A stretch of DNA of 63,567 nt, the filler included, from Chloroflexota bacterium (GTDB taxonomy: Bacteria; Chloroflexota; Chloroflexia; QHBQ01): NCBI GenBank assembly GCA_043754535.1. It is 6 parts of 6 records of this genome, joined end to end, with 100 filler letters (N's around TTAATTAATTAA, not from the genome) between each part and the next. Parts side by side here need not be neighbours in the genome. Positions count along the whole stretch, not along the records: positions 17,385 to 34,223 come from JAYUUN010000027.1; 5 more parts are not named here. One strand, written 5' to 3'. A model generated the notes under the pieces. The model had not been told where the DNA came from and did not search any database. It saw only the letters and a program-made list of their open reading frames with translations. A program made the position numbers and the translations under genes. Of this stretch, positions 17,385-45,666 are shown piece after piece; the stretch's first letter is position 1, and each line of letters starts with the position of its first letter.

Positions 17385-19237
17385 GGGTGGTGGTTGCAAC
17401 CCGATCTACCCAACGCCGTCCCCACGAGTGTCCATGTCGAAGTTTCAATCCCCTCAAATGCGGGGTGGTGGTTGCAACTTGATGGATACCACGACCCTGA
17501 TCAGCCGACTCGAAGTTTCAATCCCCTCAAATGCGGGGTGGTGGTTGCAACAAGTGATGGTGGATGAAGTAAGGGGAGGCTGGGGCGTTTCAATCCCCTC
17601 AAATGCGGGGTGGTGGTTGCAACGTATTCCTTCTTTTGATTCAATTGTAGAGAGAATGTTTCAATCCCCTCAAATGCGGGGTGGTGGTTGCAACTCCAAG
17701 TTTCGTCGCCCACCGGCGACAACAGCCAAGTTTCAATCCCCTCAAATGCGGGGTGGTGGTTGCAACTCGAGTGCGATCCCCCCTGGTGGTGTTACCAGCT
17801 TCAGGTTTCAATCCCCTCAAATCCGGGGTGGTGGTTGCAACGTCGTGCATCTACTATTTCAAATTATGTTTGCAACAGTAGTTTCAATCCCCTCAAATGC
17901 GGGGTGGTGGTTGCAACTTTATGTTGCTGTTGCTAGTACAATGTATCTTTGGTTTCAATCCCCTCAAATGCGGGGTGGTGGTTGCAACTAGGATGGGGCA
18001 GGAGGCAAAGCATGGCTAAGAGGTTTCAATCCCCTCAAATGCGGGGTGGTGGTTGCAACCTCATGCAACTGGCCCAGCCCGCCCAACTCGCGGTGTTTCA
18101 ATCCCCTCAAATGCGGGGTGGTGGTTGCAACTCGCTTACCATGCCATCGGTGGAGAGAACACCAGATGGTTTCAATCCCCTCAAATGCGGGGTGGTGGTT
18201 GCAACCACGCTGCCGCCACCCGATAGGCCGCCGCGTGCTGGCGGGTTTCAATCCCCTCAAATGCGGGGTGGTGGTTGCAACTAAGTAGCGTAGAGGCTTA
18301 CATGGCCTTGCCACAACGGTTTCAATCCCCTCAAATGCGGGGTGGTGGTTGCAACGCCATGCTCATCTTGCGGCCTTACAACCGCGTCCTCGTTTCAATC
18401 CCCTCAAATGCGGGGTGGTGGTTGCAACCGGGCGACCAGGCACATGATGTTCTGCAAGCGGCTCTAGTTTCAATCCCCTCAAATGCGGGGTGGTGGTTGC
18501 AACCCCGGCACAACAAGGGCAAGGAGAATAGTGCAATGGTTTCAATCCCCTCAAATGCGGGGTGGTGGTTGCAACCTTAGCCTCGCCACCGTTGCCGCCT
18601 TGCCGCTCCAGGTTTCAATCCCCTCAAATGCGGGGTGGTGGTTGCAACAACACTGCGCTGGGGGTGATTATTGCGCTCGGCCTGGTTTCAATCCCCTCAA
18701 ATGCGGGGTGGTGGTTGCAACGGTACAGGGCTGGCACCTGTGAGAGGCAGCGTGCCAGTTTCAATCCCCTCAAATGCGGGGTGGTGGTTGCAACTAGGGC
18801 GATGTGGTCGGCTTCGGCTGGGCCGCCGTGTTTCAATCCCCTCAAATGCGGGGTGGTGGTTGCAACACGGCAGATAAGGCGGCCACAACAATCAGGAGAC
18901 TGTCATGTTTCAATCCCCTCAAATGCGGGGTGGTGGTTGCAACGCTCTGTACGGGCGCATCAAAATCTACCGTCAAGGCGTTTCAATCCCCTCAAATGCG
19001 GGGTGGTGGTTGCAACGTGAGGGCGATGTATGCAGAGGCCGGGGCGATAGAGGTTTCAATCCCCTCAAATGCGGGGTGGTGGTTGCAACTCGGGCAGGCT
19101 CATACCGTCAAGGTTAATGCTGCCGTTTCAATCCCCTCAAATGCGGGGTGGTGGTTGCAACGCTGCTCGCCGTTGGCACATGGGCGGCCACGTCGCCCAG
19201 GTTTCAATCCCCTCAAATGCGGGGTGGTGGTTGCAAC
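17385..19237 (-). CRISPR. CRISPR array 1: 25 full repeats + 1 partial, 25 spacers; repeat GTTGCAACCACCACCCCGCATTTGAGGGGATTGAAAC (37 bp)
   Basis: Direct repeats with unique spacers; one variant repeat at 17805; orientation from ATTGAAAC 3' end and leader promoter; trailer cut by contig end. Confidence 0.98.
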
Positions 19238-19288
19238 CCTCCCGGCGTAGGTTTACGCACGATTTGCGAGAGGCTACTGCAACAGCTC

Positions 19289-19316
19289 ATTATAGCACAC
19301 TTTTGGCCGTTGTCAA
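19289..19316 (-). promoter_or_regulatory. CRISPR leader sigma-70 promoter
   Basis: Minus strand TTGACA-N16-TATAAT with extended -10 TGn, about 50 nt before the first repeat. Confidence 0.8.
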
Positions 19317-19527
19317 TACCCGCTGCCGACCAATTTTGGGCCTATTTGCCGCTGCGAGAGGCGCAACCGTAGTTCGCCACCGCACCCACCCCTCGCGCAA
19401 CCAGCCTGCCACCACTGACTTGCCCCAGCGAAGTTGCTATCAAAGTCCGTGCCACTTCTAAACCCCAGTCCAACCCTGACAATGGACTATGATAACACCC
19501 CCTCGTCTTTGTTATCATGGTCCGTTG

Positions 19528-20020
19528 TCACTCTTCCGGTAGGGAAGTGATAACGCAGACTGATAGCATGGCGGCTGTTAGCCTCTCTCCTTCCGCGGTG
19601 ATGTAGTAGTTACCACGTCCGCTTGGATGGCTGATATAGCCTTGCTCCTCGGCCTCGTTCAGCAGCCAGTTTAGGGTTGCCGAAGGCACGCCCAGTGCGA
19701 TCTTCATTGCACTGGAGCCTAAGTCCTGCACTCCGCACTGCTGCCTACGCCGCCAGCCCACTGCCGACTACCGCCAGCCCACTGTCTACTGCCCACTGTC
19801 TACTGCCAACTGTCTACTGCCGACTGGCAATTGCAGCACCTCATGTATCCGTTCGCCCGCGTCGCGCTCCCGCTTGAACCAATCAGTCACGTCATAGCCG
19901 CTCGACAGCCGGTTGCCATTCGCCCACTCCAACACCAAACCGCACCCGCCGAAGCCCGCCGCCAGCTTGTGCGCCTGCTCAAGATCACTCTGCTGGTTAT
20001 CGAACAGCACAAAGATGCAA
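19528..20020 (-). pseudogene. Remnant of Toprim (primase-like) and winged-HTH coding sequence
   Basis: 'FVLFDNQQSDLEQAHKLA...GYDVTDWF' resembles a Toprim C-terminus; 'LGVPSATLNWLLNEAEEQGYI...GNYYITAEG' resembles wHTH; separated by a short tandem repeat and stop. Confidence 0.4.
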
Positions 20021-20083
20021 GTGACCTCACCAAAACCTTACCAGCTTTCCTCAACCTTTTGTCCAAAATCATCAGCCAGCCAG

Positions 20084-20112
20084 TTGCATCTTGTCGCTCT
20101 TTCTGCTATACT
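20084..20112 (+). promoter_or_regulatory. Promoter of second cmr1-cas10' module
   Basis: TTGCAT-N17-TATACT with TGn extended -10. Confidence 0.6.
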
Positions 20113-20161
20113 CTGCGCCAGCAGCTAACAAGTTCGTGTCACAGCAAAGGTGGTGCGTACC

Positions 20162-21400
20162 ATGACCAGCCGTGATGTTTATATTTCACTACAAGCAGTT
20201 ACACCAGCCTTCTGGGGTGGTGCTGTGCCACGTCGCTACTTTGCTTTTACGGAACTGATTGACAGCAAGGGTAATACCCTGCTTGAACACAATGATAGAG
20301 GCAATTCGGTGCTGACTAAAGCTGCCAAGGACTGGCTGCGCCAAAGAGCAAATGAGCAGCATGAAACCCGCCCAGAGGCTAGAGTCCAGTCAGTACGTGG
20401 TGCATTGCGCTGGTGGCTGCGGGCAATGCTGGCTGGCAAGAACACAGGCTTGCTTGTCGCTACTGACCAACTCTGGCAAGCCGAGGCTGAGGTGTTTGGC
20501 AGCACCAACGAGGCATCCAGCGTAATGATCAGCCTGCGTAACCACAATCTGCAACCAACAATCATGAGTGAGCCAGAGGTCAACCCCAAGAATCCCTCCG
20601 GCTACGACTATATGCTCTATGGGATGCACACCGGCAAGTCAGACAGTGAAGGTCATGCCTACACGCCTCGCCAATACTACAATGAGAGTACAGACCGCAC
20701 CCGCCGCGAGATCGATCTTGCCATCACCCCTCGCTGGGGGGCAGCTAACGGCCAGCCAGCCGTTAAACAAACACTGTGGGCCATGTGGCTGCTGATCAAC
20801 TTTGGCGGACTAGGATCACGCAACCGACGAGGTGCAGGCTCAGTTGGCACCGCAGTTTTGCCGGAGCTACCAGAGTGGTTGAAGCAGCAGAAGGAGCAAA
20901 ATGAAGACCTTAAGCTGCCAGACTTCGAGCGTGCCGCGTCACTGGCTCAACTACGGGAGCGGCTCAGAGATGGGCTTATAGCTGCGACCAACAACCCAGC
21001 GTGGCAAAACGAGTCCATCACACCTCGCTATGCCGACTTCTCTGTACTCCATCCTGACTACTGTACCATTGCCATACTTGGCCCCAACAGCGGCAGTGGA
21101 TGGTCAACCGCGAAGGAAGCAATTAAGGCTACAGGCAGTGCCTTCCGTACCTTCCGCGCCAACCCCACCAACAAGCCCCTGAACTTTCGGGCATTTGGCT
21201 ACTCCCTGCCCAACAATCGCTTTGCCTCGCCGCTACACTTCACCATCGTACAACTCTCCAGCCGGAGCTTTGTTGTCGTCATGACATGGTTCCACTCCAA
21301 TCTGCCAGGTGGTGGAACCGTGCCGAGCCAGCCTATGATAACTGGCTTCGTCAATCATCTGCGACAAAGCCTTACCTGCAACTACATCTGGGAGCCATGA
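20162..21400 (+). CDS. cmr1: Type III-B RAMP Cmr1 (second copy)
   Basis: VTPAFWGG, RVQSVRGALRWWLRA, EAEVFGS, G-rich loop FGGLGSRNRRGAGS. Confidence 0.9.
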   Translation: MTSRDVYISLQAVTPAFWGGAVPRRYFAFTELIDSKGNTLLEHNDRGNSVLTKAAKDWLRQRANEQHETRPEARVQSVRGALRWWLRAMLAGKNTGLLVATDQLWQAEAEVFGSTNEASSVMISLRNHNLQPTIMSEPEVNPKNPSGYDYMLYGMHTGKSDSEGHAYTPRQYYNESTDRTRREIDLAITPRWGAANGQPAVKQTLWAMWLLINFGGLGSRNRRGAGSVGTAVLPELPEWLKQQKEQNEDLKLPDFERAASLAQLRERLRDGLIAATNNPAWQNESITPRYADFSVLHPDYCTIAILGPNSGSGWSTAKEAIKATGSAFRTFRANPTNKPLNFRAFGYSLPNNRFASPLHFTIVQLSSRSFVVVMTWFHSNLPGGGTVPSQPMITGFVNHLRQSLTCNYIWEP

Positions 21401-22746
21401 TGACCGACCACCCCACCACCCTCCTCGCCTTCGCCCTCGGCCCAGTGCAGCCGTTCATTGCCGCTGCCCGCCGTACCCAGGATTTGTTCGTCGGCAGCCA
21501 CATCCTCTCGCTGCTTGCCAAAGCCGCCTGTCAGGTCATTGAGCAGCGGGGTGGCAAGCTCCTCTATCCCATTGGGTGGAAGGATAGCAAGGCGACCAAT
21601 CTGCCCAACAAGCTGCTTGCTCGGTTCGATGACCCCACTAAAGCGGAGCAGGCTGGTAGGGGTGCAGTTGTGGCTGTGCAAAAAGCCTGGTGCAAGATGG
21701 CTGATGCTGTGCTGACGTGGCTGGCGGAGGAAGGGAGGGAAGGGAAGGCGGCAATTGCGCTAACTGACCACTTCCGCCAGATGTGGGCCGACCAGACCGG
21801 CTCTGCGCTTGAACTGTATTGGACTGTACTGTTTGCTGCCACCGTCATGCCGGGCTATGAAGCCAACGGTTACGGCGACCACGTGGAAGCCTCCGAGTCG
21901 CTGCTCGCCGCCCGCAAACTGCTGCGTAGCTTCACGCCGCACGCTGCCACCCAGGTCGGCCCGATGAGTACAATTGGCGGCCAGCTACCGGCCCTACGGC
22001 TAGGGGAGCGTGACAGCGACCGTGAAATCAAGGCGTTCTGGATTACGGTCGCGCAGGCAGTCAACAAGCAGGCTGTCCTTGACCTCGAAGGTGGCGAACG
22101 CCTAGACGCGATCAGCACCGTCAAGCGGCTCATTGCTAGCACCGACCATTACGCGAGCAAGTTCAGCCAACGCTACCCCTCGACCAGCGACGTGGCCGCC
22201 GCCGACTTGCGGGCTGCCATCCTCAATCTTGATGAGTTGCAGGATGATGGCAGCGCAATCAGCAAAGCTCTGTACCAATACTTTGAGGCGGCCAAGAAGA
22301 TAGACGTGCAACGTACGGGTGATGTACCCGGTTTGGTCAAGCTGGCAAAGCAGCATGGCATCGGTGGCTGGCGGTACGAAGCCCTGCTTAAGCATGACGG
22401 CGACCTGCTGTTCCCTCAGAATGTCAGCGCGAAGATGCTGGTCGCCGACTACGGCGTGCAGCCTGACCGCGCCGAGGCGATTAGCCGCGACCTGATCGCT
22501 AGCGCAAATGCTTTGCGCCGCGAGGCTAGTAAGCTGAAGGTGACGGCCACTACCCCCTACTACGCCGTCGTTGCCTTCGACGGCGACCGCATGGGTGCGT
22601 TGCTCCGCCGCATGACTAATAGCGACCGCCATGAAGTCTTGAGCCAGGCACTGGCCGACTTTGCCAGCAAGGATAAGTGGAGTGGCCTGCACTGCGCCGA
22701 TTATTGCATCCACTGCCCCGTCTTTGAGGGGATTGAAACCCCTTGA
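21397..22746 (+). pseudogene. cas10: C-terminally truncated Cas10/Cmr2 (no GGDD, no HD); last codons are CRISPR repeat-derived
   Basis: LGPVQPFIAAARRTQDLFVGSHILS, YPSTSD, YYAVVAFDGDRMG; homology to the full copy stops after ALADFA, before LVYAGGDD. Confidence 0.85.
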
Positions 22747-22816
22747 TCCGGCTGCCCTTACCCGCAATGTCCAGCGTTCATTGCATCCACTGCCCCGTAT
22801 TTGAGGGGATTGCAGG
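22703..22816 (+). CRISPR. Mini-array: 2 variant repeats (ATTGCATCCACTGCCCCGT[C/A]TTTGAGGGGATTG...) with one 40-nt spacer
   Basis: Repeat 22703-22739 ends ATTGAAAC; second 22780-22816 is degenerate at its 3' end; shares CCCCG..TTTGAGGGGATTG with array 1. Confidence 0.85.
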
Positions 22817-22822
22817 CACAAC

Positions 22823-22852
22823 AAAAAGGCCACCCTCTGGCGGGTGGCTTTC
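22823..22852. terminator. Bidirectional terminator between mini-array and cmr6
   Basis: aaaaaggccaccc-tctggc-gggtggctttc. Confidence 0.75.
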
Positions 22853-22873
22853 ATCGTCTATGCTGCCGGTTGG

Positions 22874-23818
22874 CTAAGGCTGGACTTGTTGGAAGTTGGT
22901 GAACACGCCGTAGCCGCTGGTCGTCTTGGCCCCGATGCCCATCTGCTCAAGGCCACGCTGCAAGAAGTCCCACGCTTGCTTGGCTACGGCTGCGTCGCCA
23001 TTGCGGGCCGCCACCCCGAACAGGAAGCGGCTGGCCTTGCCCACCGTCAGAAAGTTGACGGGGGTCGGGCTGTCGTAGTCGGCGGGCGGGTGGTTGCCTT
23101 GCCCCTTGTTGTTGTAGTAGTCGGGGTAGTGCGGGTTCATGATGTCCAGTTCCAAAGTCAGGCTGAGTGGCAGCGCGTCGTAGAAGATCGCCTGCCCTGT
23201 ATTGTCCTGCGTGCCGAACAGGTGCCGGAACATCTCCACCAGCCCGTTGTTAGTATAAAACTGATACAGATAATCATAGTTGGATCGATCTTTGGCTTTC
23301 AGGTCAGCATTATACTCGACTACATCACGCTCAAGGCGGCTGAGTGCACCCAGTTCCTCATACTGGCCTCTGGCGTTCTTGCGGGTCGGTACGCGCACCC
23401 CCTTCTTCTCCAACTTCAGCCACAAGTTCGTCAACGCCCTTGCCCGCGCCAGCCCCTTGAGCGCACTACCAGGGATGATCGGGCAGCCGTAGAGGTGGTG
23501 CAGCCGGATGCCAACCTCCCGCGCTCCCTTGTTGCCCAGCCCGACGATGCACCGCGCTTGCGGCCCTGCCTCGTAAGCGACCACTCCGGGTTGCAACTGC
23601 CGCAGCATAGCCCGCTGGCGTTTATCCAGCGCAGTCAGCATAGCCGGATCGAACTGGAAGTTGCTGGCCGCCTTCAACTGACCGCTGTCCTTCTCCTTCA
23701 GTATTTCGCCACTGCCGTTGACTGCCACGTACTTGCCGATTAGCAGTGCCAGATTGCTAATGTCAATGTCGCGGGCAACGTTGCGGTTGGTATCTTCTGG
23801 CAGTGCATAATTTGGCAT
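22874..23818 (-). CDS. cmr6: Type III-B RAMP Cmr6
   Basis: LHHLYGCPIIPGSALKG, LFGTQDNTG, DIMNPHYPDYY, GIGAKTTSGYG. Confidence 0.95.
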   Translation of the reverse strand: MPNYALPEDTNRNVARDIDISNLALLIGKYVAVNGSGEILKEKDSGQLKAASNFQFDPAMLTALDKRQRAMLRQLQPGVVAYEAGPQARCIVGLGNKGAREVGIRLHHLYGCPIIPGSALKGLARARALTNLWLKLEKKGVRVPTRKNARGQYEELGALSRLERDVVEYNADLKAKDRSNYDYLYQFYTNNGLVEMFRHLFGTQDNTGQAIFYDALPLSLTLELDIMNPHYPDYYNNKGQGNHPPADYDSPTPVNFLTVGKASRFLFGVAARNGDAAVAKQAWDFLQRGLEQMGIGAKTTSGYGVFTNFQQVQP

Positions 23819-24251
23819 TGGCCTGATCCTCATCAATACCACTGTCGTCAATATCCTTCACATCAGCCAGCAGCCCCTCAACCCACCGCTTGAGCCAGGT
23901 TGCATAAGCAATCGCCTCGATTGTCGCCAAACGGTAGTTGGCACTGCTGTTTGCCATCAGCAGGCGCAACAAATCCTTGCTCTCCTGCTTCTCAAACTTA
24001 ACTTGCTCGACTACCCAAGTGCTGATGTCGCTGTAAAGTTGGTTGTAGGCCGCCTTCTTGCGCTTGCTGAACAGGAACGACATGGCCGCCCCCAGTCCCG
24101 AAGTCATGACTAGCGCACCGAACTTCTTGGCCTGTGACTTGTATTCTCCCTTGTACTTATCATCCTTACTGGCAGCGACTGCCTCAACCTTGTCGTAGGC
24201 GTTCTTGGCCCGCCGCATATCAGCACTCTGGCGGTTGGACGTGTCGGCCAT
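23763..24251 (-). CDS. cmr5: Type III-B small subunit Cmr5
   Basis: 'YKSQAKKFGALVMTSGLGAAMSFL...YRLATIEAIAYATWLKRW'; lies between cmr4 and cmr6. Confidence 0.92.
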   Translation of the reverse strand: MADTSNRQSADMRRAKNAYDKVEAVAASKDDKYKGEYKSQAKKFGALVMTSGLGAAMSFLFSKRKKAAYNQLYSDISTWVVEQVKFEKQESKDLLRLLMANSSANYRLATIEAIAYATWLKRWVEGLLADVKDIDDSGIDEDQANAKLCTARRYQPQRCPRH

Positions 24252-25171
24252 CACTTCACCTCCTGCAAGCGGAGAGCGACTGTTCCCCGCCCTGTAGTTT
24301 CGTCGCCACCCAGCCGCACCCGCTGCTCGTTCAGCTTGTTGAGAGTCTCCTGCACACCATCCGAGGACATCTCGTTGCCCGTCTTCTTGGTGCCTCCCTT
24401 GCCGATATATAGCGGCGCATAAAGCAGCGTGTCGCTCGGCAAACTCTCCTCCGTCCAAAGCGCACCGCGGGCGACCGTCTTGGTCTCGGTCGTGAGCCGC
24501 ACGCGGGTGACGACCTCAGTCGCGTAGCTGACAAAATCGCGGAAGTCGTTCTCCGGCAACACCAGCAGGTGGCTGGCAAGGCTGTCGCGCCAATACTTGT
24601 ACTCCGCCGTCTGCGGCAGGGCGTGCTTGGTCAGGTAGTCAGCTAGCTTGTCCACCTCGTCGCTCTTGTTGGCCTCGTAGCTGAACTCCTCCAGCACGAC
24701 GGTGGGACTACCCAGCGCACTGTTGTTGCTGACCAACGCCCCCCGCTCCTGGGCTTGCAGTTTGGTCAGATCGAAGCCGAGCTTGCTGGTATCCACTCCA
24801 GCAGCAGCCAGGTCGCGCACATAGCGGGCGAGGACGTTCGCGCTGGTCGCCCAGGCGAACACGCCCTGCACCGAGCGCACCGGAAAGAGGAGCAGCCTGG
24901 CATCGCCGAACGATACCGCGCCTGCGTAGGCATCGCTGTCCGCCCCGATCTTCTCCGGCCCGAACACCGCCTCGCACTCCTTGTCGTTCAAGCCCAGCAT
25001 CCCCTTCGCCTCAGCCCGCAGTCGCCCCTTGACCCCGCTGGCCTGCACCAAAGGATAGTTGGTGCTGCGCTCGCGCTGGATCGGCAGGTCAACCACGCCG
25101 ACGGCCCGGCCACTGCCCGCGTGCAGCGGCGTTTCTACGTAGAAGTACAGCATCGCACTCTTATCGAACAT
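24251..25171 (-). CDS. cmr4: Type III-B backbone RNase Cmr4
   Basis: ETPLHAGSG..G.VDLPIQRE (catalytic Asp), DARLLLFPVRS, LGGDETTGRG. Confidence 0.96.
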   Translation of the reverse strand: MFDKSAMLYFYVETPLHAGSGRAVGVVDLPIQRERSTNYPLVQASGVKGRLRAEAKGMLGLNDKECEAVFGPEKIGADSDAYAGAVSFGDARLLLFPVRSVQGVFAWATSANVLARYVRDLAAAGVDTSKLGFDLTKLQAQERGALVSNNSALGSPTVVLEEFSYEANKSDEVDKLADYLTKHALPQTAEYKYWRDSLASHLLVLPENDFRDFVSYATEVVTRVRLTTETKTVARGALWTEESLPSDTLLYAPLYIGKGGTKKTGNEMSSDGVQETLNKLNEQRVRLGGDETTGRGTVALRLQEVK

Positions 25172-25172
25172 C

Positions 25173-26348
25173 TTACCATCCCCCCACAAGTACCTGTCCA
25201 AAGCCAATCGCGCCACCTTGGTCGGTGATCGGCTTGCCGTTATGTGTGATTGTGCTGCCACCCTTGCCCTCAAGGTAGTAGACGCTGCCTGCTGGCACGT
25301 AGCGGTGGGCAGGCTTGTGGCGGTGGTTAGCCAGGTCGAAGCCTGCCACCGTCAGCGGGCGACCCAATGCAGCGGCCACCAACGCTGGCTCTCCATCGAA
25401 GAAGTCGCTCCAGTTGCCTGGCAACCAGCCGTTCTTGAAGTAAGCGGGGGTGGCGAAGTAGAGCTTGATTCGTGGGCCGCTAACTGGCGCAGGTCGCTGG
25501 GCATCGCCGATCTTGCGGTAGAGGCCAACCCGCCGCTCCCCACCCAAACTGACTGCCCCCTGCCCCCTTTCAGGCGGCGGCCATCCCAGTTCGTCAAGCT
25601 CCAGGCCGAGGCCGACCCGCCAATCGCCGCGCCATTGGGGGCGGGTGAAGCTGACAGTGTAGAGCATCCCTTCTTCGGTGGACTTGCCGCCCGCTTGCAG
25701 CTTGATGCCCAGCCGCTCCTCGTCGTCGCTCAACAAATCCGCGGCAACAACCACGCTGTCGGGTGCGCCTTGTGCCAGCCAGTCTTTCAGGTCGTCCTCA
25801 TCGCGCAGAGTGTGGGCGATACCAACTGGCTGCTCGCTAGCCGCCGCCAGATAAGCCTTCATCGCCTCCGCATCCAGCCAACCAGCCGCGTTCTTCGCCT
25901 CCTTGTTGCTCGTGTAGAGCAGGTGGCTAGTCGCCAGCGCACTGACTGCCAGCCCGCCGCCGACCTTCTGCACTTGTGGCAGCCAGTATTCGCGGTCAGC
26001 CACGTAGAGGTCAGCGGGAGCGGGGTAGTAGCGGGTGTAGGTTGCAGTGGGCTTGCCATCTCTGCGGGTGATCAGCTGCGTGGTCAGGAAGGGGCCACGA
26101 AGTTGCAGGTTGCCGTAGTCGCCCTCGTCGGGGCTGCCAATGGCAGCTTTGGCGGCAGCGTTGCCCTTGTTCTTGAAGTCGTCGAAGTCTATGCCGTTCG
26201 CCAGCAAATAACTGGTACGCACCATGCCCGCGATGGTGGTCGGCAAGGGCGGGAACTGGCTCTGGGCGCGGTGGTCGCTGCCCGCGCTAAAAGGCCTGCC
26301 GTCGCGGAACAGCCAGACATCGCCCGCTTCGATAAACAGCGTTGTCAA
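25173..26348 (-). CDS. cmr3: Type III-B Cmr3
   Basis: DVWLFRDGRPF, FPPLPTTIAG, LGGERR, VPAGSVY, GFG. Confidence 0.95.
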   Translation of the reverse strand: MTTLFIEAGDVWLFRDGRPFSAGSDHRAQSQFPPLPTTIAGMVRTSYLLANGIDFDDFKNKGNAAAKAAIGSPDEGDYGNLQLRGPFLTTQLITRRDGKPTATYTRYYPAPADLYVADREYWLPQVQKVGGGLAVSALATSHLLYTSNKEAKNAAGWLDAEAMKAYLAAASEQPVGIAHTLRDEDDLKDWLAQGAPDSVVVAADLLSDDEERLGIKLQAGGKSTEEGMLYTVSFTRPQWRGDWRVGLGLELDELGWPPPERGQGAVSLGGERRVGLYRKIGDAQRPAPVSGPRIKLYFATPAYFKNGWLPGNWSDFFDGEPALVAAALGRPLTVAGFDLANHRHKPAHRYVPAGSVYYLEGKGGSTITHNGKPITDQGGAIGFGQVLVGGW

Positions 26349-28486
26349 TCCTGCTCCCCTCCTCTGGCGATAAACTCCGCGACACGCAGCCAGCCGCTAA
26401 GTTGCTGGCTGGCCTGTACCGCTAGCTGCTCGTCGCTGTACTTGCGCTTCGGCTTACGCAACTCGGCTTTAACCAGCCGCCGGTTGGCGTTGGTCAGCAG
26501 CGTGGTCATACCAGCTAGCAATCCCTTCCCGGCAGTAGTCAGCTTGCCATCGTCCTTCAGCGTGTCGCCGTTGGTGTGGCGCAGCAGCAACCGCCGTAGT
26601 TCGCTGGCCGCCATGTTGGTGAGGCCAAAGGCGTGCGCCTCGCGGTCGAAGTCGAACACCAGCTTGGCGGAGAGCGGCCCGCCCCCGGCAAAGTAGCGGC
26701 TGAGGTCAATAACCGGCTGAAGGTCGCCGAAGCCAATCCCGCCATCTGCACCCACGTCGGCGGTCGGGTCGAAGCCAAACTGGTAGCCGACGGTGGAGTG
26801 TTCGCCACTGCGCCGCAGGGTCGTCACCGCCACTGCGTTACGGCCATACTCGTTCTTGGCTAGCTTCTCGGCTTTACGCACCTGATCCAGCACGAAATCG
26901 AGCGGGGTCAGGTGGTGGGCGAGGACAATACCAGCACTGGCGGTCGCCAGCGGCCCATCGTCGGCGTGCAGCGTGGTGCCGGTTAGATGCTTACGCAAGG
27001 TAGTGCGGTACTGGCGCAGCAACTCAACCACGCCTCCGAGCGCAGTCGTCAGCGGGAAGAAGGCGAACACGTCGTCGCCCCCAGCATAGACCAGCCGCCC
27101 CAGATACTCCCTGCTCTCGGTCACGGTGCGGGCCGGGCCACCGGCAAAGGCGGCCAATGCCGCGCTCAAGTTCTTGTGACCGTCCTCGGCCATGCCGCTG
27201 AGGAGCCTGCCCATGCGGTCGCCGTCCATCAGCACGACGGCGTAGTAGGGGCTGGTCGTGGTGATGCCCGCTGCCCCAGCCGCTTGCCGCAATTCACGGG
27301 CGGTGCTGGCGATCTTGCCCGCCGCCTCAGTCGCCCGCCGTTGTCGCCGCTCAGGGTCGTTCTCGCCCGGATAGATGCCGTAGTCGAGCAGCAGCATCTT
27401 GCCGCTGATGCTGGCGGGAAAGAGGAGGTCGCCATCGTAGCGCAGCAGAGCCGCCCGTGCCTCGCTGTCCAGCCCGCTTACCTCGTCGGCGATCAGGGGC
27501 AGAGCGGGGATGTCGTCCTCGGCGGTTTCTTCCCAGTGGCGCAGCGGCTGGATGTCGTTGTAAAGCTGCTTGAGGGTGGCCGCGATGTTGGGGCTGGCGT
27601 AATGGCGCAGGATGTCGGCCCGCAAGTCGGCGGCGGCGAGGTCGCTGGTCGAGGGGTAACGCTGGTAGAAGGCTTGCAGGCCGGGGTAGCGACGAGCCGA
27701 CTCCTCCTTGGTCAGGTCGCGGCGGATCAGTTCTGGCAGCAGCCGCTTGACGGTGCTGATCGCGTCGAGCCGTTCGCTACCGTCGTAGGTCAGCACGGCC
27801 TCGCGCTTCACCCCATCTTCAGCTAGCTGCTGCCAGAACTTGCGGATCGCCTCGTTGCCGTCAGCCTTGTCACCGCGCAAGACCGGCAGCGTGCCGCCAA
27901 TGCTGCTCATCGGGCCGCGCTGCTCATTGCCGAGTGGAGCAAAGTCACGAGCCTGCTTGCGGGCGGCCAGCAGCCCCTCGGCGGCATCTACTGCGCGGGC
28001 GTAGTCGGTGCGCTCATCATCACCCTGACGTTCGCCCAGCAGTTTGTCAACCTCAGCGGTGTCCAGCACCGCCCAGTAGACTTCGAGGAAGTGGTCAATC
28101 TGCTTGCCCCAAATGTCGGGGTTGGAGGTCAGGCGGCTTGCCAGCCAATGCTTGTAGACCAGCGCGGCCAACCGCTGCCATTCCCCCTTTACCGCAGCCC
28201 CGGCCTTGGTGGCCGCTGCTTTCGCATCGGCGACGGTGGCGAAGCTGGCTAGCAGCTTGTTGGGGATGTTGCTGCGCTTGCCGTCGTTGCTATCTTCTGG
28301 CAGCGTCGGGTAGATGATCGTGCCTTGCCCGCTGCTGATGGTGGCGTGGGCTTGGCGGGCGAGGTGGCTGAGGATGCTGCTACCCACGAACAGGTCGCTG
28401 GCGCGGCGGGCCGCTTCGATAAAGGTCTGCACCGGGCCGAGGCTGAGGGCAAGCAGGACGCGGGCTGGCGCGGGCTGGTCGCTCAT
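26345..28486 (-). CDS. cas10: Cas10/Cmr2, HD-less, cyclase motifs intact
   Basis: LGPVQTFIEAARR, YYAVVLMDGDRMG, LVYAGGDD, TASAGIVLAH. Confidence 0.96.
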   Translation of the reverse strand: MSDQPAPARVLLALSLGPVQTFIEAARRASDLFVGSSILSHLARQAHATISSGQGTIIYPTLPEDSNDGKRSNIPNKLLASFATVADAKAAATKAGAAVKGEWQRLAALVYKHWLASRLTSNPDIWGKQIDHFLEVYWAVLDTAEVDKLLGERQGDDERTDYARAVDAAEGLLAARKQARDFAPLGNEQRGPMSSIGGTLPVLRGDKADGNEAIRKFWQQLAEDGVKREAVLTYDGSERLDAISTVKRLLPELIRRDLTKEESARRYPGLQAFYQRYPSTSDLAAADLRADILRHYASPNIAATLKQLYNDIQPLRHWEETAEDDIPALPLIADEVSGLDSEARAALLRYDGDLLFPASISGKMLLLDYGIYPGENDPERRQRRATEAAGKIASTARELRQAAGAAGITTTSPYYAVVLMDGDRMGRLLSGMAEDGHKNLSAALAAFAGGPARTVTESREYLGRLVYAGGDDVFAFFPLTTALGGVVELLRQYRTTLRKHLTGTTLHADDGPLATASAGIVLAHHLTPLDFVLDQVRKAEKLAKNEYGRNAVAVTTLRRSGEHSTVGYQFGFDPTADVGADGGIGFGDLQPVIDLSRYFAGGGPLSAKLVFDFDREAHAFGLTNMAASELRRLLLRHTNGDTLKDDGKLTTAGKGLLAGMTTLLTNANRRLVKAELRKPKRKYSDEQLAVQASQQLSGWLRVAEFIARGGEQD

Positions 28487-29832
28487 GGCTGTGCCTCCTG
28501 TCGGTAGGCGATCTGCAAGGCATCCGCGTTCAGCCGGTCTTCAAGGCCTACTTTGAAATCCTCAAGCAGCGTGCTGGCAAGCTCGTTGCTGGGCGGGTCA
28601 ACTAGCACTGGCCTGCCGCCCGCTTTGATTTGCAGCTTACGCTTTTCGGGTGGCTGGTTGGGGCGGATGATGGTTGGCACCAACTCGCGGTAGGCGATGG
28701 TCAGCACCAGCGCGATGTCGCGCCCCACGGGGCTGAAGTGCAGCATCACCGGCGAGGCCGAGCGCGTCTCCTTGTCGTCGTCACCTTTCCAGCTAATGCC
28801 GACGCGATCCCTGGTTTGGGGGAAGTAGAAGGCCAGCGGCAGACCAAAGGTGGCCCGCTCGATCTGCGGCGGCGGCGTGCCGTCCTTGAGGAAGCTGGTG
28901 ATCGCCACGTTGTCGTCGGCGATCTCCTCACTGCGGAACTGGGCAAAAGCACGGCCAACCTCATCCATTGCATCTTCCCACTTGCGCCAGGTGCGGTCGA
29001 ACACGTAGATGGTAGTATAGTCGGGGTGGAGAACTGTGTAGGGGCTGACCTCTGGCTCGATCTTGTCGCTGGAGGGTCGGTCGTGGTACTTGTAGCTGCT
29101 ACTGATCAGCTTGCGTATGCTTTTAACCCCGGCCTGCAGCTGCTGCTGTAGTTCCTTTGGCGAAGCGGCAAGGGGTGGGGTGGGCAGTTGTTGCTCCGGC
29201 CAATTGGGGTGATTGGCAACGCTGAGGCTGCCCGCCCCACGCCGACTGCGTGCGCCCAACCCGCCGAGGCTAGTCAGCAGCCAGAGGGCAGCACAGGCGT
29301 ATATTTGCGGGTCGCGCCCACTAGCCTCCCCACTGTCGTCCACTATCACGCCAACCCTCAAGCCCAGGTGCAGGTCGAAGGCTGCGCCGGGTTGGTAGGC
29401 GCGGCGGGCGGGGGCAGAATTGCGGCCAGTTTGCTCGTGCATGCCATATAGTAGATAGTCTTGACCAGCAATCAGGCGGGGGTTTCGCCCGACTTTGGTT
29501 ACTTCGCGCACATCGCGGGGGCCAGTGTTGTCGGTGAGGCGCAAGGTTATAGGCGAGGCACCACCCTGCTCCAGACCGTCGTCGCGCTCCTTGTAGGTGA
29601 CGCTACCGAACACCTTCGCTTCCTCTTGCCAGAGCTTGTCAGTGTCAGTGAAGTTGGGGCCAGCCACACCGCAGCCAGCCAGCAACGCCCGCAGCCACCA
29701 GCGCATTGCGCCCCGCACTGACTGCACGCGCAACTCGGCCCGCAATTCGGCTGGTGCGCCACGCGGCTCGGTACCACCAATGAACATGGGGGTGACTACT
29801 CGTAGGTCAAGTTTAACTGGCTCGTCAGGCAT
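28483..29832 (-). CDS. cmr1: Type III-B RAMP Cmr1
   Basis: VVTPMFIGG, LRVQSVRGAMRWWLRA, LGGLGARSRRGAGS, FGLP, RSASP. Confidence 0.94.
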   Translation of the reverse strand: MPDEPVKLDLRVVTPMFIGGTEPRGAPAELRAELRVQSVRGAMRWWLRALLAGCGVAGPNFTDTDKLWQEEAKVFGSVTYKERDDGLEQGGASPITLRLTDNTGPRDVREVTKVGRNPRLIAGQDYLLYGMHEQTGRNSAPARRAYQPGAAFDLHLGLRVGVIVDDSGEASGRDPQIYACAALWLLTSLGGLGARSRRGAGSLSVANHPNWPEQQLPTPPLAASPKELQQQLQAGVKSIRKLISSSYKYHDRPSSDKIEPEVSPYTVLHPDYTTIYVFDRTWRKWEDAMDEVGRAFAQFRSEEIADDNVAITSFLKDGTPPPQIERATFGLPLAFYFPQTRDRVGISWKGDDDKETRSASPVMLHFSPVGRDIALVLTIAYRELVPTIIRPNQPPEKRKLQIKAGGRPVLVDPPSNELASTLLEDFKVGLEDRLNADALQIAYRQEAQP

Positions 29833-29886
29833 GATAGTTCCACCTCTGCTGCTGGTTTGATTGCCAGATGCGCTGGCTCCGCAAAG

Positions 29887-29915
29887 AGTGTAGCACAGCC
29901 TATCGCTGTTTGCAA
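29887..29915 (-). promoter_or_regulatory. Promoter of main cmr operon
   Basis: Minus strand TTGCAA-N17-TACACT with TGn; similar to the promoter at 20084. Confidence 0.55.
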
Positions 29916-30003
29916 TAGCCAGCAACAAGCAATCTACGATGAGCTTGCGGCCATGCGGTGAGGTGATGGTAAGGTGTACTGGTTTATTGCTTGCCCTAGT
30001 CGC

Positions 30004-30033
30004 TTGACCAATATGCCACACCTACGTTATAAT
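30004..30033 (+). promoter_or_regulatory. Promoter of effector operon
   Basis: TTGACC-N18-TATAAT. Confidence 0.55.
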
Positions 30034-30131
30034 GCAACCACACTGGCTAGTAAAGTTGTGTCAAGCAGTATGCAGTCGTGGGTCAATGACCCACGTGCGC
30101 GTGGATGGGCAACATGAAGGAGGATGCAGCG

Positions 30132-31121
30132 ATGAGCGGCAAGGTGATGATTTCGCTGATCGGTGAGCAAACGGTGCCGAACGTGGTGCCACTGCTGCAC
30201 TATAGCAAGCTACATGGGGTTGAGCGTAGTATCCTTGTTCACTCTGGTAGCCTCACTGATCGCTGCGGCTGGATTGAGGGCGTAGTCAGGTCGAAGTCTC
30301 CCGCCAGTGAACAACAGCAGTTGCTGATAAGCGGCTATGACCTAGCGGCAGCTACCAAGCAGCTAAAGGCACTGGTTGAGGCTGGTATTAAGCAGCAAGG
30401 CTGGCAGATCAGCGATCTGGTCTTCAACTTCACTGGTGGCACCAAGATCATGGCTTTGGCTCTCTATGGTCTGGCTACGACTTTTGGCTGTGAAGCGGTC
30501 TACTACCAGACTGACGATCAGGATGATCCCGGACGCGGCCCGCGCATCCAGAGCTACATCACTTGCAACGGTGAACTACTCGCCAGCGACATCTCTCCCC
30601 TTGAAGTGCTTGACATCGAAAGCTACTTTGCGGCGCATGGTCTGACTGTTAGTGTGCCACAAACTGACCCTCGTGCTAAACTTGAGCAGAATATACGCAA
30701 CGCGAAAGACGCTGGTAGTAGGCGTGGCTACCAGTTCGAGGTGGCGGTCTATGATGCGTTGCTGCCAGTTGCCTCTGAGCTTATGCTGGGGGTGACGTTC
30801 CCGGGCTTCACTAGCGACATCGATCTGGTTGTGCGACTCGACAATCTGGTTGGGGTGGTACAACTCAAGTCTGGTGGTGAAGCGAACGGTCTTAAAGGTA
30901 TAGAGCAAACAACGTTGTTCAGCGGCGTGCCTTACGGCACTTACACCAAACGCCTGATTATTGATGATGGTGCAGCTAACGTACAAGATAAGCACGCTGA
31001 ACACATCAAGAAGCAGAACATCAAGCGGTGTCGCATTAGTCCCTATAATCCTGCAACTGGCATTAGCGATGTCGAGGGCTTGCGTGAGCAAGTAATTGCA
31101 GCACTGAGGGCATCCCGATGA
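30132..31121 (+). CDS. CARF + PD-(D/E)XK nuclease, Can2/Card1 (DUF1887)-like cOA effector
   Basis: ISLIGEQTVPNV, FNFTGGTKIMAL (CARF); GYQFE...DIDLVV...VQLKSG (restriction-like nuclease). Confidence 0.85.
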   Translation: MSGKVMISLIGEQTVPNVVPLLHYSKLHGVERSILVHSGSLTDRCGWIEGVVRSKSPASEQQQLLISGYDLAAATKQLKALVEAGIKQQGWQISDLVFNFTGGTKIMALALYGLATTFGCEAVYYQTDDQDDPGRGPRIQSYITCNGELLASDISPLEVLDIESYFAAHGLTVSVPQTDPRAKLEQNIRNAKDAGSRRGYQFEVAVYDALLPVASELMLGVTFPGFTSDIDLVVRLDNLVGVVQLKSGGEANGLKGIEQTTLFSGVPYGTYTKRLIIDDGAANVQDKHAEHIKKQNIKRCRISPYNPATGISDVEGLREQVIAALRASR

Positions 31122-31498
31122 TCATCCTTAACTTCTCCCATCCTCTGACCGAGGCCCAGCTAGCAAGTATCCGCCAGCTAACTGGTAGCGACGACCTGCG
31201 CGAAGTCCGTGTCCCCACCCAGCTAGACCAGCAGGCTGACTTTCTGCTCCAGATCGTCGCGCTGGCCGATGCTTGTGGGCTGGCCGCCACCGAGTGGCAA
31301 ACCGAGCCACTTGTCGTCAACCCGCCCGCGCTCAACTTTGTCGCAGTCGCACTGCTGGCCGAGTTGCACGGGCGCATGGGCTACTTCGCCACCTGCCTGC
31401 GCCTGCGCCCGGTTGCAGGCAGCACCCCGCCACAGTTCGAGGTCGTGGGGCTACTCAACTTGCAGGCTGTGCGCGATGAGGCAAGAACAAGGAGGTGA
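31118..31498 (+). CDS. csx15: CRISPR-associated Csx15 (probable ring nuclease)
   Basis: MIILNFSHPLT...WQT..LVVNPP.L...A..LLAELHGRMGYF signature. Confidence 0.88.
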   Translation: MIILNFSHPLTEAQLASIRQLTGSDDLREVRVPTQLDQQADFLLQIVALADACGLAATEWQTEPLVVNPPALNFVAVALLAELHGRMGYFATCLRLRPVAGSTPPQFEVVGLLNLQAVRDEARTRR

Positions 31499-31501
31499 GC
31501 G

Positions 31502-32272
31502 ATGAACAGACAGCGGCCTCGCGGTTTGGTGCGGATGCTAGGGGCAGACAGCGTGCTGGGGCTGATCGGCCTCATCCTCTTTGGTGTGCTGGTCAACGCC
31601 CTGTTCCAGCTTGCCACCGACTTCTCGTGGGGTGCAGCAGCGGTGGCGGTTGTCACCACGATTGGGCTGCTGCTGCTCGTCCCCCTCAACCAGCTACTCA
31701 ACCAGCGCAGCCGCCCGCCGCAACTGGGGCTGGCGGCAGAACGTGAGGTCGTTCCCACCGCCGGGCTGATCGTCATCGTCAGCATCCCCGGCAAAGGCCC
31801 GGATGGACAGGAGTTGCCACTAAACACGACTGCGGCAGGGGCGGCGATTGTCTTCCACAGCCAAATCCATGCTGCCGGGCAGCCACCGTTGCTACGCCGC
31901 TGCTGGCTGATCCACTCGGCCAAGACGCAGCCTTACGCCGAAGCCTTGCAGCAGCAGTACGCCACCGACTTCCCTTGCGTGCCGGTGCCAGTCGCGGACA
32001 TCGAGTCGGCCAAAGCGACGTTCGAGGCGGTCAACCGCTGCTATGGCGACGGCCTACTCAACGGTCTGCGGGCGGGCGACATCACCGCCGACTGCACCGG
32101 CGGCACCAAAGCAATGACGGTGGGTATGGCTCTGGCAGTGGCCGCCCAGCAGTCGCGCAGCCTTGAGTACATCCCCACCGCCTATGATGAGCGCGGCAAC
32201 CCTGACCGCCAGAAGCAGCTTGACCCCTTGCTGGTTAGCATCGAGTTCTTTCTAGGGGATGAGCAGCAGTAG
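31502..32272 (+). CDS. Transmembrane-CARF effector (Cam1/Cam2-like)
   Basis: Two N-terminal TM helices, then GLIVIVS, CWLIHS, ITADCTGGTKAMTVGMALA CARF motifs. Confidence 0.8.
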   Translation: MNRQRPRGLVRMLGADSVLGLIGLILFGVLVNALFQLATDFSWGAAAVAVVTTIGLLLLVPLNQLLNQRSRPPQLGLAAEREVVPTAGLIVIVSIPGKGPDGQELPLNTTAAGAAIVFHSQIHAAGQPPLLRRCWLIHSAKTQPYAEALQQQYATDFPCVPVPVADIESAKATFEAVNRCYGDGLLNGLRAGDITADCTGGTKAMTVGMALAVAAQQSRSLEYIPTAYDERGNPDRQKQLDPLLVSIEFFLGDEQQ

Positions 32273-32295
32273 CTAGCGAGTTGCGACCAGCTACG

Positions 32296-32690
32296 CTAAT
32301 GACCGAGTACCCTCACGCTGTTGGTGCGACTGTGCCAGATTAGCGTGTGCTGGCCGAAGTTCGCCAGCAGCTTCTGCGCCCGATCTGCTTCACCACCAGG
32401 TCGCTGTCGCCACGTACCTCGATCTGCCAAGCAGCCAGCGATTGGCCTGCCGCTTCGATGCGGCGAGTGACATCCTCCAGCCCGGCAATCAGCGACTTGT
32501 ACTCGGCTTCGTTGTTGGTGCCGTAGCCAAAGTCCAATCGGCTGACAACCTCAAGCGGCTCAGTGAGCCAGGCACCGTTCGCATCCGGCACGAATAGGGC
32601 GTAGCTGCCATAGGAAGCACCGGGATTGGGTTCGGCCCCGCCGTCGAACCAGATCATGACTCGCTTATATAGATTGATGATGTTCGCCAT
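32296..32690 (-). pseudogene. RNase HI-family gene with internal deletion/frameshift
   Basis: WFDGG..PNPG, TNNEAEY, IEVRGDSDLVVKQI; C-terminus AQKLLANFGQHTLIWHSRTNSVRVLGH* lies in another frame. Confidence 0.75.
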
Positions 32691-33033
32691 TTTGCCCTCT
32701 TGTGAAGTTCAGCAAGCAGCCACTATTGGTTCGCCGGGTGAGATCACTCTAAACAAAGTTAGCTTTACCATCTTTGTAAAACATCCTGTGAATTGTTAGC
32801 CATCCACTCAGCCATCGCTCCAAAGACCCAGCCTCTGGCACGGCACTCAGCAACTCCGACGCTAAGCTACGCTGGAGTGGAGCCGTGCCACTTCAGCCAG
32901 CAGCCTACAGCCGCAAAGTTGCCTACCACAACCAGCCGCTGAGGGTGCAACTGTGCCACGCTCATTAGCTGGCTACATGGCTGCACTACTCAGGCGGCTG
33001 CTGGCTGCTAGCTTCCCATCCTGGTCTACTGCC

Positions 33034-33418
33034 TCACCCCTCTGCGCTCAGCTTGCGCTTCAGGTCGTTGCAGTGGCTGTGGGCTAGCAACCCCTCATGT
33101 TGCAGCCTGCCCACCACAATGCCCGCTGCCACCCCTACTTCATGCGCGAAGGCTTCGATTGCCGCTTTGCTCTGGTACTTGCCTGCTTGCACAAACTTCG
33201 TCCATAGTGAAGCTGCGACTAGTGTGTCAGCAGCAAAGCGGTTGGCTGCCACCTCTTTGCTCGTGTCCGCTACATCCCCTTCCAGAAACACCGCTTGTTT
33301 GCCGTGCAGCACGATGTGACCTGCTTCGTGGTAGAACGTGAACCACAGCTGGTCTTCCGTCTTGTAGCGGTAGCTTAGTTGGATCATTGCCTTGCGCGGA
33401 CTGAGCCAGCGGGTGGCA
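33034..33418 (-). pseudogene. C-terminal fragment of HigA-like/ImmA-IrrE zinc peptidase antitoxin
   Basis: ATRWLSPRKAMIQLSYRYKTEDQLWFTFYHEAGHIVLH (HExxH), EVAANRFA, GIVVGRLQHEG; N-terminal HTH absent. Confidence 0.75.
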
Positions 33419-34223
33419 GGGGCAGCATGATTGACCTGTTTGGGCGCAATTATCTAGCCTGTGTGCTATGCGGCGGTCGAGCTTTAGCGGCCAGGTGCTA
33501 GCGGCAGAGCTTCCCACTGGTGCTAGTGGTGACACGCGGCCCGGAGAAGCGGCTGGCTAATTTAACTGAGGCGGTAGAGGACAGGCTGACCGTCAATGAG
33601 CTGATACTGTTGAAGGGCAGAGTGTGGAGTGTGCCACTGCTGCGCGAACGCTTCGCCTCGTGAGAGCAACCAACCACTGGGTGGTGCCAATCTCACGCCC
33701 CCTGTGAGTGTATGATGCTCAAGATATACACCACAAGACAGTGGGAAGCTGCTGAAGCTGGTTCAAGCAGGGGTTGAGGTTAAGCTGTGGCGACGGTAAG
33801 CGGCTTAGCTAGCCGGCGCGATCAAGTGATTTGGTTGCAGCCACCCTTTTCACCAAATCAGGGCAGCACGCGGCAGCCAGATGAGTGCTGAGCAGCATAT
33901 ACTTGCAGAGCGCGCCAGTACTGACAGGGGTACTGCTGAACATGCTGGATGGCTATCTGGAACTGCTGGAAGCAGCGAAGTAGGCACAGGCAGCAAGAGG
34001 GTGCAAAACAGCCCGCTCACCAGCGAACATGATGATCAGCAACGAACTGCAATATCATCAGATAGTACAAGAAGTATGAACAACCATCTACATGACCAAC
34101 GTAAGAAGCGGCATAACTCGTCGCCAGTTTCAACTATCTCTCTCAAGCCCAGTAAGAACCCTGCTTCTTACTGGGCTTCTGTCATATGCCCCAATGACTG
34201 TAGCTGTAATTCGGCGAAAACTC

Positions 34224-44733: not shown

Positions 44734-45666
44734 CTAGTGGCTGACCTCGGCGATCAGTTGCTGGGCCGCCGTAGAGATGTCGGTCTCGCGGCTGAGGAGG
44801 TCGTCCAGCAGTTTGCTACCCTCCGCGCTGTTTAGCCGCTGTAGGGCGCGGGTAGCTAGCTCGGCCTTTACCCGCTCTACCAGTTCGTCATGCAGGGCGT
44901 GGCGGTTGCGCTCTTGCAGCCTGCCCGACCCTTGCAGGTAGGTGAAGTGGTCGGCCACCGCCGCCGCCAGTTGCGCGGTACCATCTCCCTGGCTGGCTAT
45001 CGTCTTGACAATCGGCGGCTTCCAGTCGTAGTGCGAGTAGCTGAGCATGGTGCGGAGGTGGGTAGCTAGCTTATCAGCCCCCTCGCGGTCGGCCTTGTTG
45101 ACCACCAGCACGTCGGCGATCTCCAGAATGCCTGCCTTGATGCTCTGCACGTCGTCACCCAGCCCCGGCACTTCGACGAGGATGGTAGTCTGCGCCGCCT
45201 TAGCGATGCTAACCTCATCCTGGCCCGCCCCGACTGTCTCGATCACGATCAGGTCAAAGCGCGCTGCGTCTAGCACACGCACGGTGTCGTTAGTCGCTGC
45301 ACTAAGGCCACCGACCATGCCGCGACTCGCCATGCTGCGGATGTACACGCCGTCGTCACCGTAGAACTCCTGCATCCTAATGCGGTCACCCAGCACGGCA
45401 CCGCCACTGAGGCTGCTGCTGGGGTCGACCGCAACAATAGCCACCCGCTTGCCAAGATTGCGGTAGAAGTGGATCATCTGGTTAACCAGTGTACTCTTGC
45501 CTGCTCCCGGTGGCCCAGTCACGCCCAGGACTCGCGCCCCGCCCAGGTGCAGGTTGATATCACGCAGCACAGCAGCGGCACGGGGGCCACCGTTCTCCAC
45601 CGTGCTGATCGCCCGCGTCAGGGTTAGCTTATCGCCCGCCTGTAGCTTCTCGACCAGTTCGCTCAT
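44734..45666 (-). CDS. meaB: B12 mutase-associated GTPase
   Basis: [43 protein letters not shown]. Confidence 0.95.

Follow-up and report, generated by a model that had tools for sequence, protein, structure and literature searches.

The closest described counterpart of the locus studied here is the type III-B CRISPR-Cas module (short palindromic repeats, clustered and regularly interspaced, and associated genes) with an HD-less Cas10, or Cmr2 (families TIGR01894, TIGR02577, TIGR01888, TIGR02580, TIGR01881 and TIGR01898). In addition, mini-arrays have been described: Shmakov et al. 2023 (PMC10120712) place them near 10-14% of type III systems, as likely degraded, non-functional repeats, and characterize CreA/CreR, scaRNA and type I mini-arrays by a partial promoter match of at least 10 bp beside a protospacer-adjacent motif and by conservation among relatives. 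We compare these systems with a locus in a 63,567-nt stretch of DNA (the window, by which we mean the whole stretch analysed) from a Chloroflexota bacterium (assembly GCA_043754535.1, labelled G000, 89% complete). The window is several contigs strung together, and the locus lies on one 16,839-bp contig, G000:C27 (window 17385-34223). It consists of a second cmr1 gene (cmr1'), a cas10 gene cut short before its GGDD motif (cas10') and a mini-array with one spacer, beside a complete III-B operon. A sequence-only reading had proposed either the deletion scar of a second III-B system or a retained, signalling-dead modulator with a dedicated guide RNA. We find that the locus is most probably a remnant of a III-B operon: the orthologous site in relatives is full, the break is sharp after near-identity, and the layout occurs in one lineage. 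Our verdict is a strain-specific loss of at least 6 kb. Most likely (with a probability of about 0.9), the locus is the stump of a second III-B (Cmr) operon, complete in other strains, left by a recent deletion that spared the trailer end of an array.

Both the neighbouring operon and L015, a metagenome contig described below, hold the six genes in the usual order with GGDD, and both add a Card1-type CARF gene and csx15. The window stump differs: it holds only cmr1 and 423 of ~698 Cas10 residues, with no Palm2 GGDD, no cognate cmr3-6 and no effector (Table 1). Its Cmr1 had been read correctly as an intact, diverged paralog; it is 32% identical to the main Cmr1, and the gene differs from its L015 allele by 3 nucleotides over 412 codons (1 silent, 2 replacement). 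The cas10' gene starts in an ATGA overlap with the cmr1' stop, and residues 1-422 of its product are 42% identical to the main Cas10. The protein does stop just short of the GGDD, as had been claimed: of the 133 positions in the Pfam Palm2 model only 1-41 find a match, residue 423 is the last with homology, and the GGDD lies 20 residues further on, at 443 in the full allele. From there the frame continues through the CRISPR repeat to a stop at 22744-22746 in the spacer, again as first seen, adding 25 residues that show no homology to full-length alleles in the alignment. A promoter of its own had also been proposed. The motif is present in the sequence, below the scan threshold and absent from the 3 sites given by the promoter scan, but since L015 has identical bases ahead of its full operon and a like motif lies upstream of the main cmr1, we read it as the old operon promoter.

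Table 1. Coordinates of the features at the stump and around it, and of genes bracketed by CRISPR repeats (window positions unless a contig is named).
Feature	Position	Strand	Basis
CRISPR array 1, 25 repeats, divergent from cmr1'	17442..19237	-	repeat finding; promoter scan
Likely promoter of second cmr operon, TTGCAT-17-TATACT, extended -10 (TG)	20084..20112	+	sequence; like motifs elsewhere
cmr1', intact, 412 amino acids, first gene of second III-B operon	20162..21400	+	TIGR01894 E=2.8e-14
cas10' 5' part, residues 1-423: HD-less Cmr2, broken off past the first Palm2 strand and helix	21400..22668	+	alignment, Pfam
Junction zone	22650..22702	+	comparison with other strains
Read-through tail of cas10' frame, 25 residues, crosses repeat 1, ends in spacer	22669..22746	+	reading of the open frame
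CRISPR repeat 1 of the C112-type family, with hairpin and 8-nt handle intact	22703..22739	+	repeat comparison, folding, Rfam
Spacer, 40 nt, inside 40-43 nt range of C112 array; no target found	22740..22779	+	target searches
Degenerate terminal repeat, hairpin kept, handle lost	22780..22816	+	repeat comparison; homologous trailer on C112
Terminator hairpin, T-tail on minus strand (serves cmr6 side)	22826..22851	.	terminator scan; folding z -5.0 minus, -3.1 plus
Complete neighbouring III-B operon, cmr1-cas10(GGDD intact)-cmr3-cmr4-cmr5-cmr6	22874..29832	-	profile matches
Effector genes of complete operon: Card1-type CARF protein, csx15, membrane-type protein	30105..32272	+	profile matches
L022: leader, repeat, 38-nt spacer, degenerate repeat, AHSA1-family gene (stop inside next repeat), terminator	G000:C62:21031-20364	-	
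L098: repeat, RibD_C-family gene (stop overlaps next repeat), trailer of window mini-array's kind	G001:C87:2829-2180		
L027: repeat, Imm5-like gene, repeat, spacer, repeat	G001:C311:64-805		
L102: two repeats, then ABC/UvrA-like gene	G000:C51:10153-10040		

The evidence that carries this reading comes from other strains, represented by metagenome contigs (L015, L016), sequencing runs (X1, X5-X7, X9, X10) and clustered proteins (P-numbers). A metagenome scan yielded two loci, L015 and L016, from 59 candidate stretches. Over the leader and cmr1', L015 is 96-100% identical to the window per 100-base block, and it holds the array-1 repeat and leader, cmr1', a 729-residue Cas10 with GGDD at 474, cmr3, cmr4, cmr5, cmr6, the Card1-type CARF gene and csx15; L016 ends 30 nt past the break, still within cas10. 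Both carry the array-1 leader and repeat as in the window with different spacers (0 of 5 and 0 of 5 among the window's 24), and because the two share spacers with each other we count them as one strain. Measured against the intact operon, at least 6,077 bp are missing from the window, and a tblastn search with the window's Cmr3-6 found no second cmr3-6 copies in the 89% complete assembly. Among the five runs from other studies, X5, X9 and X10, which stem from three studies, follow the window as far as 22661. There all three part from it by the same loose end, which reads on in frame as cas10 (F-A-S-D-G-A-K-T-A-V) and runs on for ~2,360 nt. None of the five shows the junction, X7 and X6 being uninformative there (a contig that stops at 22649, and listed pieces that stop at 22581).

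Proteins tell the same story. A search with Cas10' residues 330-448 gave 3 matches among 144 candidates (246-784 residues), namely the window protein and two full-length ones. The only other member of the fragment's 90% cluster, P0004, has 698 residues with GGDD at 443, and differs from the fragment at 14 sites in residues 1-423, only one of them after residue 91. Taken together, the two closest clusters have 8 members: the truncated window protein, four full-length proteins (P0002, P0004, P0006, P0009) and three shorter pieces, the sole aligned one of which (P0008) runs through GGDD to the C-terminus. Since these sources may overlap in samples, we count the support as three studies and not as eight records. 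The sequence-only reading had named beforehand what would speak against a retained module, namely relatives with a full second operon and a long array at this position; the full operon was found, and at the place of the array the contigs break at the repeat.

Quantitative inspection of the junction shows how abruptly the window departs from its relatives. Between 22540 and 22661, 120 of 122 bases are identical to L015, and the first departure from the other strains' continuation is at 22662. Five differences in 22650-22668 are all synonymous, so this piece is probably still cas10-coding, of a different allele block; the alignment thus puts the break, in all likelihood, in 22669-22702. The promoter scan gives no promoter-like site near 22650-22700. 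The junction itself is seen in one of the six runs compared, X1, a possible source sample of the window: a 3,395-nt contig of that run spans 19337-22731, and so reaches 70 nt past the first departure, with 0 differences at depth 45 (neighbours, 50-53). X1 shows the join in reads and not its occurrence elsewhere. In X5, X7, X9 and X10 the spacer and 22675-22689 are uncovered, and these blanks are not used as evidence.

Now we consider the mini-array to the right of the break. Its repeat-spacer-repeat structure is as originally described, as is the difference of its repeats from array 1 (6 of 37 positions for repeat 1 and 8 of 37 for repeat 2). The 4-bp hairpin of array 1 had been said to be kept along with the handle; the hairpin is indeed in both repeats, but the handle ATTGAAAC is only in repeat 1, and repeat 2 ends ATTGCAGG. 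An Rfam match of the repeats to CRISPR-DR10 (E=3.1e-6, 34.6 bits) falls under the gathering score of 39. Nor is the variant confined to the mini-array: another contig of this genome, C112, has a five-repeat array from which repeat 1 departs at just 2 positions. The spacers there are 40-43 nt long, the final repeat is degenerate, and the sequence downstream, terminator included, is homologous and faces a cas6 remnant. Because C112 holds the same repeat family, degenerate end and matching downstream sequence, we infer that the mini-array repeats are the oldest (trailer) end of an ordinary array of a second repeat family. The C112 array is itself cut short upstream by a piece like an insertion sequence (IS), presumably IS1. 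As a side observation, C112 (L017) carries a DNA methyltransferase, ParA, ParB, the cas6 3' remnant and the five-repeat array, and resembles a mobile element that bears a second decayed CRISPR locus.

The mini-array had been said to be followed by a terminator, head-to-head with the complete cmr operon. There is a hairpin at ~22826-22851, but only its minus strand has a terminator score, that is, for the complete cmr operon, with just TTTC following on the plus strand; it is possibly weakly bidirectional. The two units do face each other, but they converge at their 3' ends. Like the degraded type III mini-arrays in PMC10120712, this one has two repeats, the upstream near-canonical and the downstream degraded, no conserved position and no target. 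It differs in being fused to a broken cas10, and it could therefore be transcribed from the cmr1' promoter. With CreA/CreR, scaRNA and type I mini-arrays, as that paper presents them, it shares the two-repeat layout with a variant repeat; it departs from them in having no promoter match of at least 10 bp (in 7 cas upstream regions) and no positional conservation, and in that its variant is an ordinary second family of the genome. Among close relatives the position is not conserved: cas10' runs on in three other strains, and X5 has different DNA after cmr6, without the mini-array (loose end at 22862).

Searches with the spacer in the genome, viral contigs, phages and plasmids found no target. 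Its first 20 bases have no exact match in viral_contigs, nor do 20 bases of the upstream junction piece. Phages gave 3 records (E=7) and plasmids 11 (best E=0.04), all at chance level, and the best match in its own genome is 26/40, with shuffles reaching 25-28. Against the 7 cas upstream regions, the 5' seed matches at most 3-7 nt (under 10 bp; shuffle p 0.11-1.0), and 7 other genome sites match its 11-nt seed with 17-22/40 overall. A likeness to cmr6 spotted by eye was dropped, being no better than shuffles (best in the cas locus 23/40, p=0.5). In passing, an array on G000:C50 has an oldest (last) spacer, following its repeat at 44798, that agrees at 18/20 bases with the 3' end of cmr1' (~21341-21360). 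The mismatches fall on third positions of codons, and shuffles give p=0.005 inside the locus, with E=0.27 genome-wide. This match was picked after the fact from 81 queries and is not used here, although the spacer could derive from a cmr1 relative.

Under the deletion reading, the complete cmr operon would have shared its terminator with an array that converged on it; the right-hand piece would be that array's oldest end, and a short-homology deletion is the plain reading of the event. The remnant array would gain no spacers, because its leader is lost. The old promoter would still be expected to give Cmr1', a 448-residue Cas10 fragment that could not make cyclic oligoadenylate (cOA), and read-through into the repeats, from which Cas6 (encoded in the I-D locus on C62) might release one ordinary CRISPR RNA (crRNA) for which no target is known. 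Missing from the fragment are 275 residues, among them the C-terminal domain and most of Palm2; in Cmr-beta, according to 10.1101/2020.06.24.163345, the Palm2 and C-terminal parts contact Cmr4 and the Cmr3 stalk loop. With these residues and its own Cmr3-6 gone, assembly of Cas10' is unlikely. The loss was probably cheap, since the cell keeps a complete III-B system with effectors, an I-D system and III-A genes.

Several points weigh against this account. L015, L016 and the protein clusters may share samples with the X runs and are not necessarily independent of them. No relative was seen with a long array here; contigs of X6, X7 and X10 hold repeat 2, terminator and cmr6 and start at the repeat. 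The two operons may or may not have been adjacent before the event, so what happened could have been a larger rearrangement and not a simple deletion. Four runs of X1's one study hold 0.99 of the window's sequence words, and the junction looks fixed in this possible source population. Furthermore, as far as the break the cmr1' and cas10' frames contain neither stops nor frameshifts, and the promoter has not changed; with strains ~1% diverged this is expected either way, so it is no sign of selection. Private changes in the window (4 amino-acid changes, 2 each in Cmr1' and Cas10', against ~1 private silent change outside the junction, over all aligned alleles) lean to relaxed selection, on a count too small to serve as a test. 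The pN of 0.15 and pS of 0.32 (nonsynonymous and synonymous differences) between cas10' and L015 reflect allele swapping before the break, because cas10' is a mosaic of near-identical and divergent blocks.

What, then, of a stump born by deletion and since kept as a modulator, in which the neighbouring Cmr complex takes in Cmr1' and the GGDD-less Cas10, which damp its signalling, while the single crRNA serves as a dedicated guide? The intact frames, promoter and handle-bearing repeat 1 would suit such a role, as would the apparent fixation in the possible source population, and in Sulfolobus Cmr-alpha, according to PMC6212834, Palm 2 substitutions abolished cOA synthesis and not target RNA cleavage, which makes a signalling-dead complex conceivable. 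The layout, however, was seen only in the window's own genome and its possible source run, and in no other strain or genome examined. The cognate Cmr3-6 are gone and the paralogs are just 32-42% identical; the missing 275 residues include those that make the contacts described in Cmr-beta; the spacer seed matches the 7 cas upstream regions at no more than 3-7 nt; and the repeats match an ordinary array trailer. We therefore hold a retained modulator to be very unlikely. A natural decoy, in which one transcript supplies a GGDD-less Cas10 and Cmr1' that compete for places in the Cmr complex and lower cOA output, and Cas6 cuts the fused-repeat mRNA to free one guide, would account for the apparent fixation of the junction in its population and, if true, would be a new way of tuning type III signalling. 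To us this too is highly improbable.

The remaining alternatives concern how the join arose. Cas1-Cas2 may have linked chromosomal cas10 DNA, or a piece the size of a spacer, to the repeat's 5' boundary and removed the intervening DNA: the break interval takes in that boundary, 22662-22702 is 41 nt, a normal spacer length for the C112-type family, and the genome has one cas1. Yet inspection of the sequence by eye, without computation, gave no sign of a target-site duplication at the break, and the five synonymous differences favour an allele switch or short-homology recombination. The locus also shows other breaks with IS-like or methyltransferase fragments, so an ordinary deletion suffices, and a scar made by the adaptation machinery is unlikely. 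A chimeric join in this metagenome-assembled genome would be in keeping with a window that strings separate contigs, and the X1 contigs do break around repeat 1 (22731 / 22711), so that the link across repeat 1 rests, among the contigs listed, on the original assembly; with the separately assembled X1 contig identical through the junction at depth 45, we regard an artefact as extremely improbable.

The deletion scar also fits the wider relatives, where the layout of cmr1, cas10' and mini-array has no second example among the other strains, 41 genomes, 50 GTDB loci and the protein clusters. Nine of the 41 genomes, the window's own included, match cas10'. In the relatives, the frames examined carry GGDD or GGED, with a single exception that continues to the end of a contig; the short frame of G014 (L008) stops with its contig, and the same-genus genome G001 (87% complete) has no cas10' match. 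At 48 of the 50 GTDB loci with the Palm2-start motif common to the fragment, G-G-D/E-D follows in frame, while one runs 282 residues past the motif and one runs off its contig. The unpublished genome G012 enters the 41-genome tally and the motif check (L006, L013) and alignment A1 (L006), and no conclusion depends on it. GGED replaces GGDD in a few related Cas10 proteins (L002, L052, L057, L063). The locus is one more case of CRISPR-cas turnover; what it offers is mainly a clean before-and-after pair, full operon against stump. By title or abstract opening, no published module of this layout turned up in the open-access literature. It is important to note the warning here: a GGDD-less cas10 beside a mini-array in a single assembly can be a scar.

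Alleles of cas10' (window 21400-22668 against L015, P0002, P0004 and P0009) are mosaics, with divergent residues at ~101-170 and ~275-380 in combinations that vary per strain, and the main cmr6 is likewise mosaic in X5, X6 and X10. This suggests frequent segment swapping among cmr modules, and the block-wise swapping in cas10 could interest students of type III module diversification. At L015:10016-11183, behind csx15, come a short frame and then a Type ISP restriction-modification gene of which just the 3' part is present, whereas G000:C104 has the gene complete (96-97% identical). The second-operon locus has apparently been broken here as well.

On the other side of cmr1', the leader of array 1 carries a 12/12 sigma-70 consensus at 19316-19289 in the promoter scan. 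Between this leader and cmr1' lie broken minus-strand reading frames (19500-20060), 96-100% conserved in L015, which may be a primase/winged-helix relic. A primase fragment as the identity of the piece at 19789-20037 was set aside, the piece being without a Pfam match at E<=1. Beyond the complete operon, the third, membrane-type effector gene has no Pfam match and a weak CARF match (TIGR02710, E=1.8e-6), far under the cut-off.

In this genus, single genes lie whole between degenerate CRISPR repeats of the mini-array's family and of a sister family (Table 1), a pattern present in 2 of 201 genomes of the class and a more interesting, though peripheral, lead than the stump itself. By their arrangement, the bracketed genes look like gene-sized inserts in arrays. 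Searches of the open-access literature, judged by title or abstract opening, turned up no description of such inserts between repeats, and the sole cas1 found is a 375-residue open frame, short for a reverse transcriptase fusion. A 34-base piece of repeat 1 (window 22702-22740) has a contig depth of 48-163 in X7, X9 and X10, against ~8-12 for unique DNA. The contigs that meet this piece in X5, X7, X9 and X10 are mostly 184-3,464 nt, not spacer-sized, and one loose end begins with ATG after the repeat; in these strains the repeat-1 family may delimit gene cassettes.

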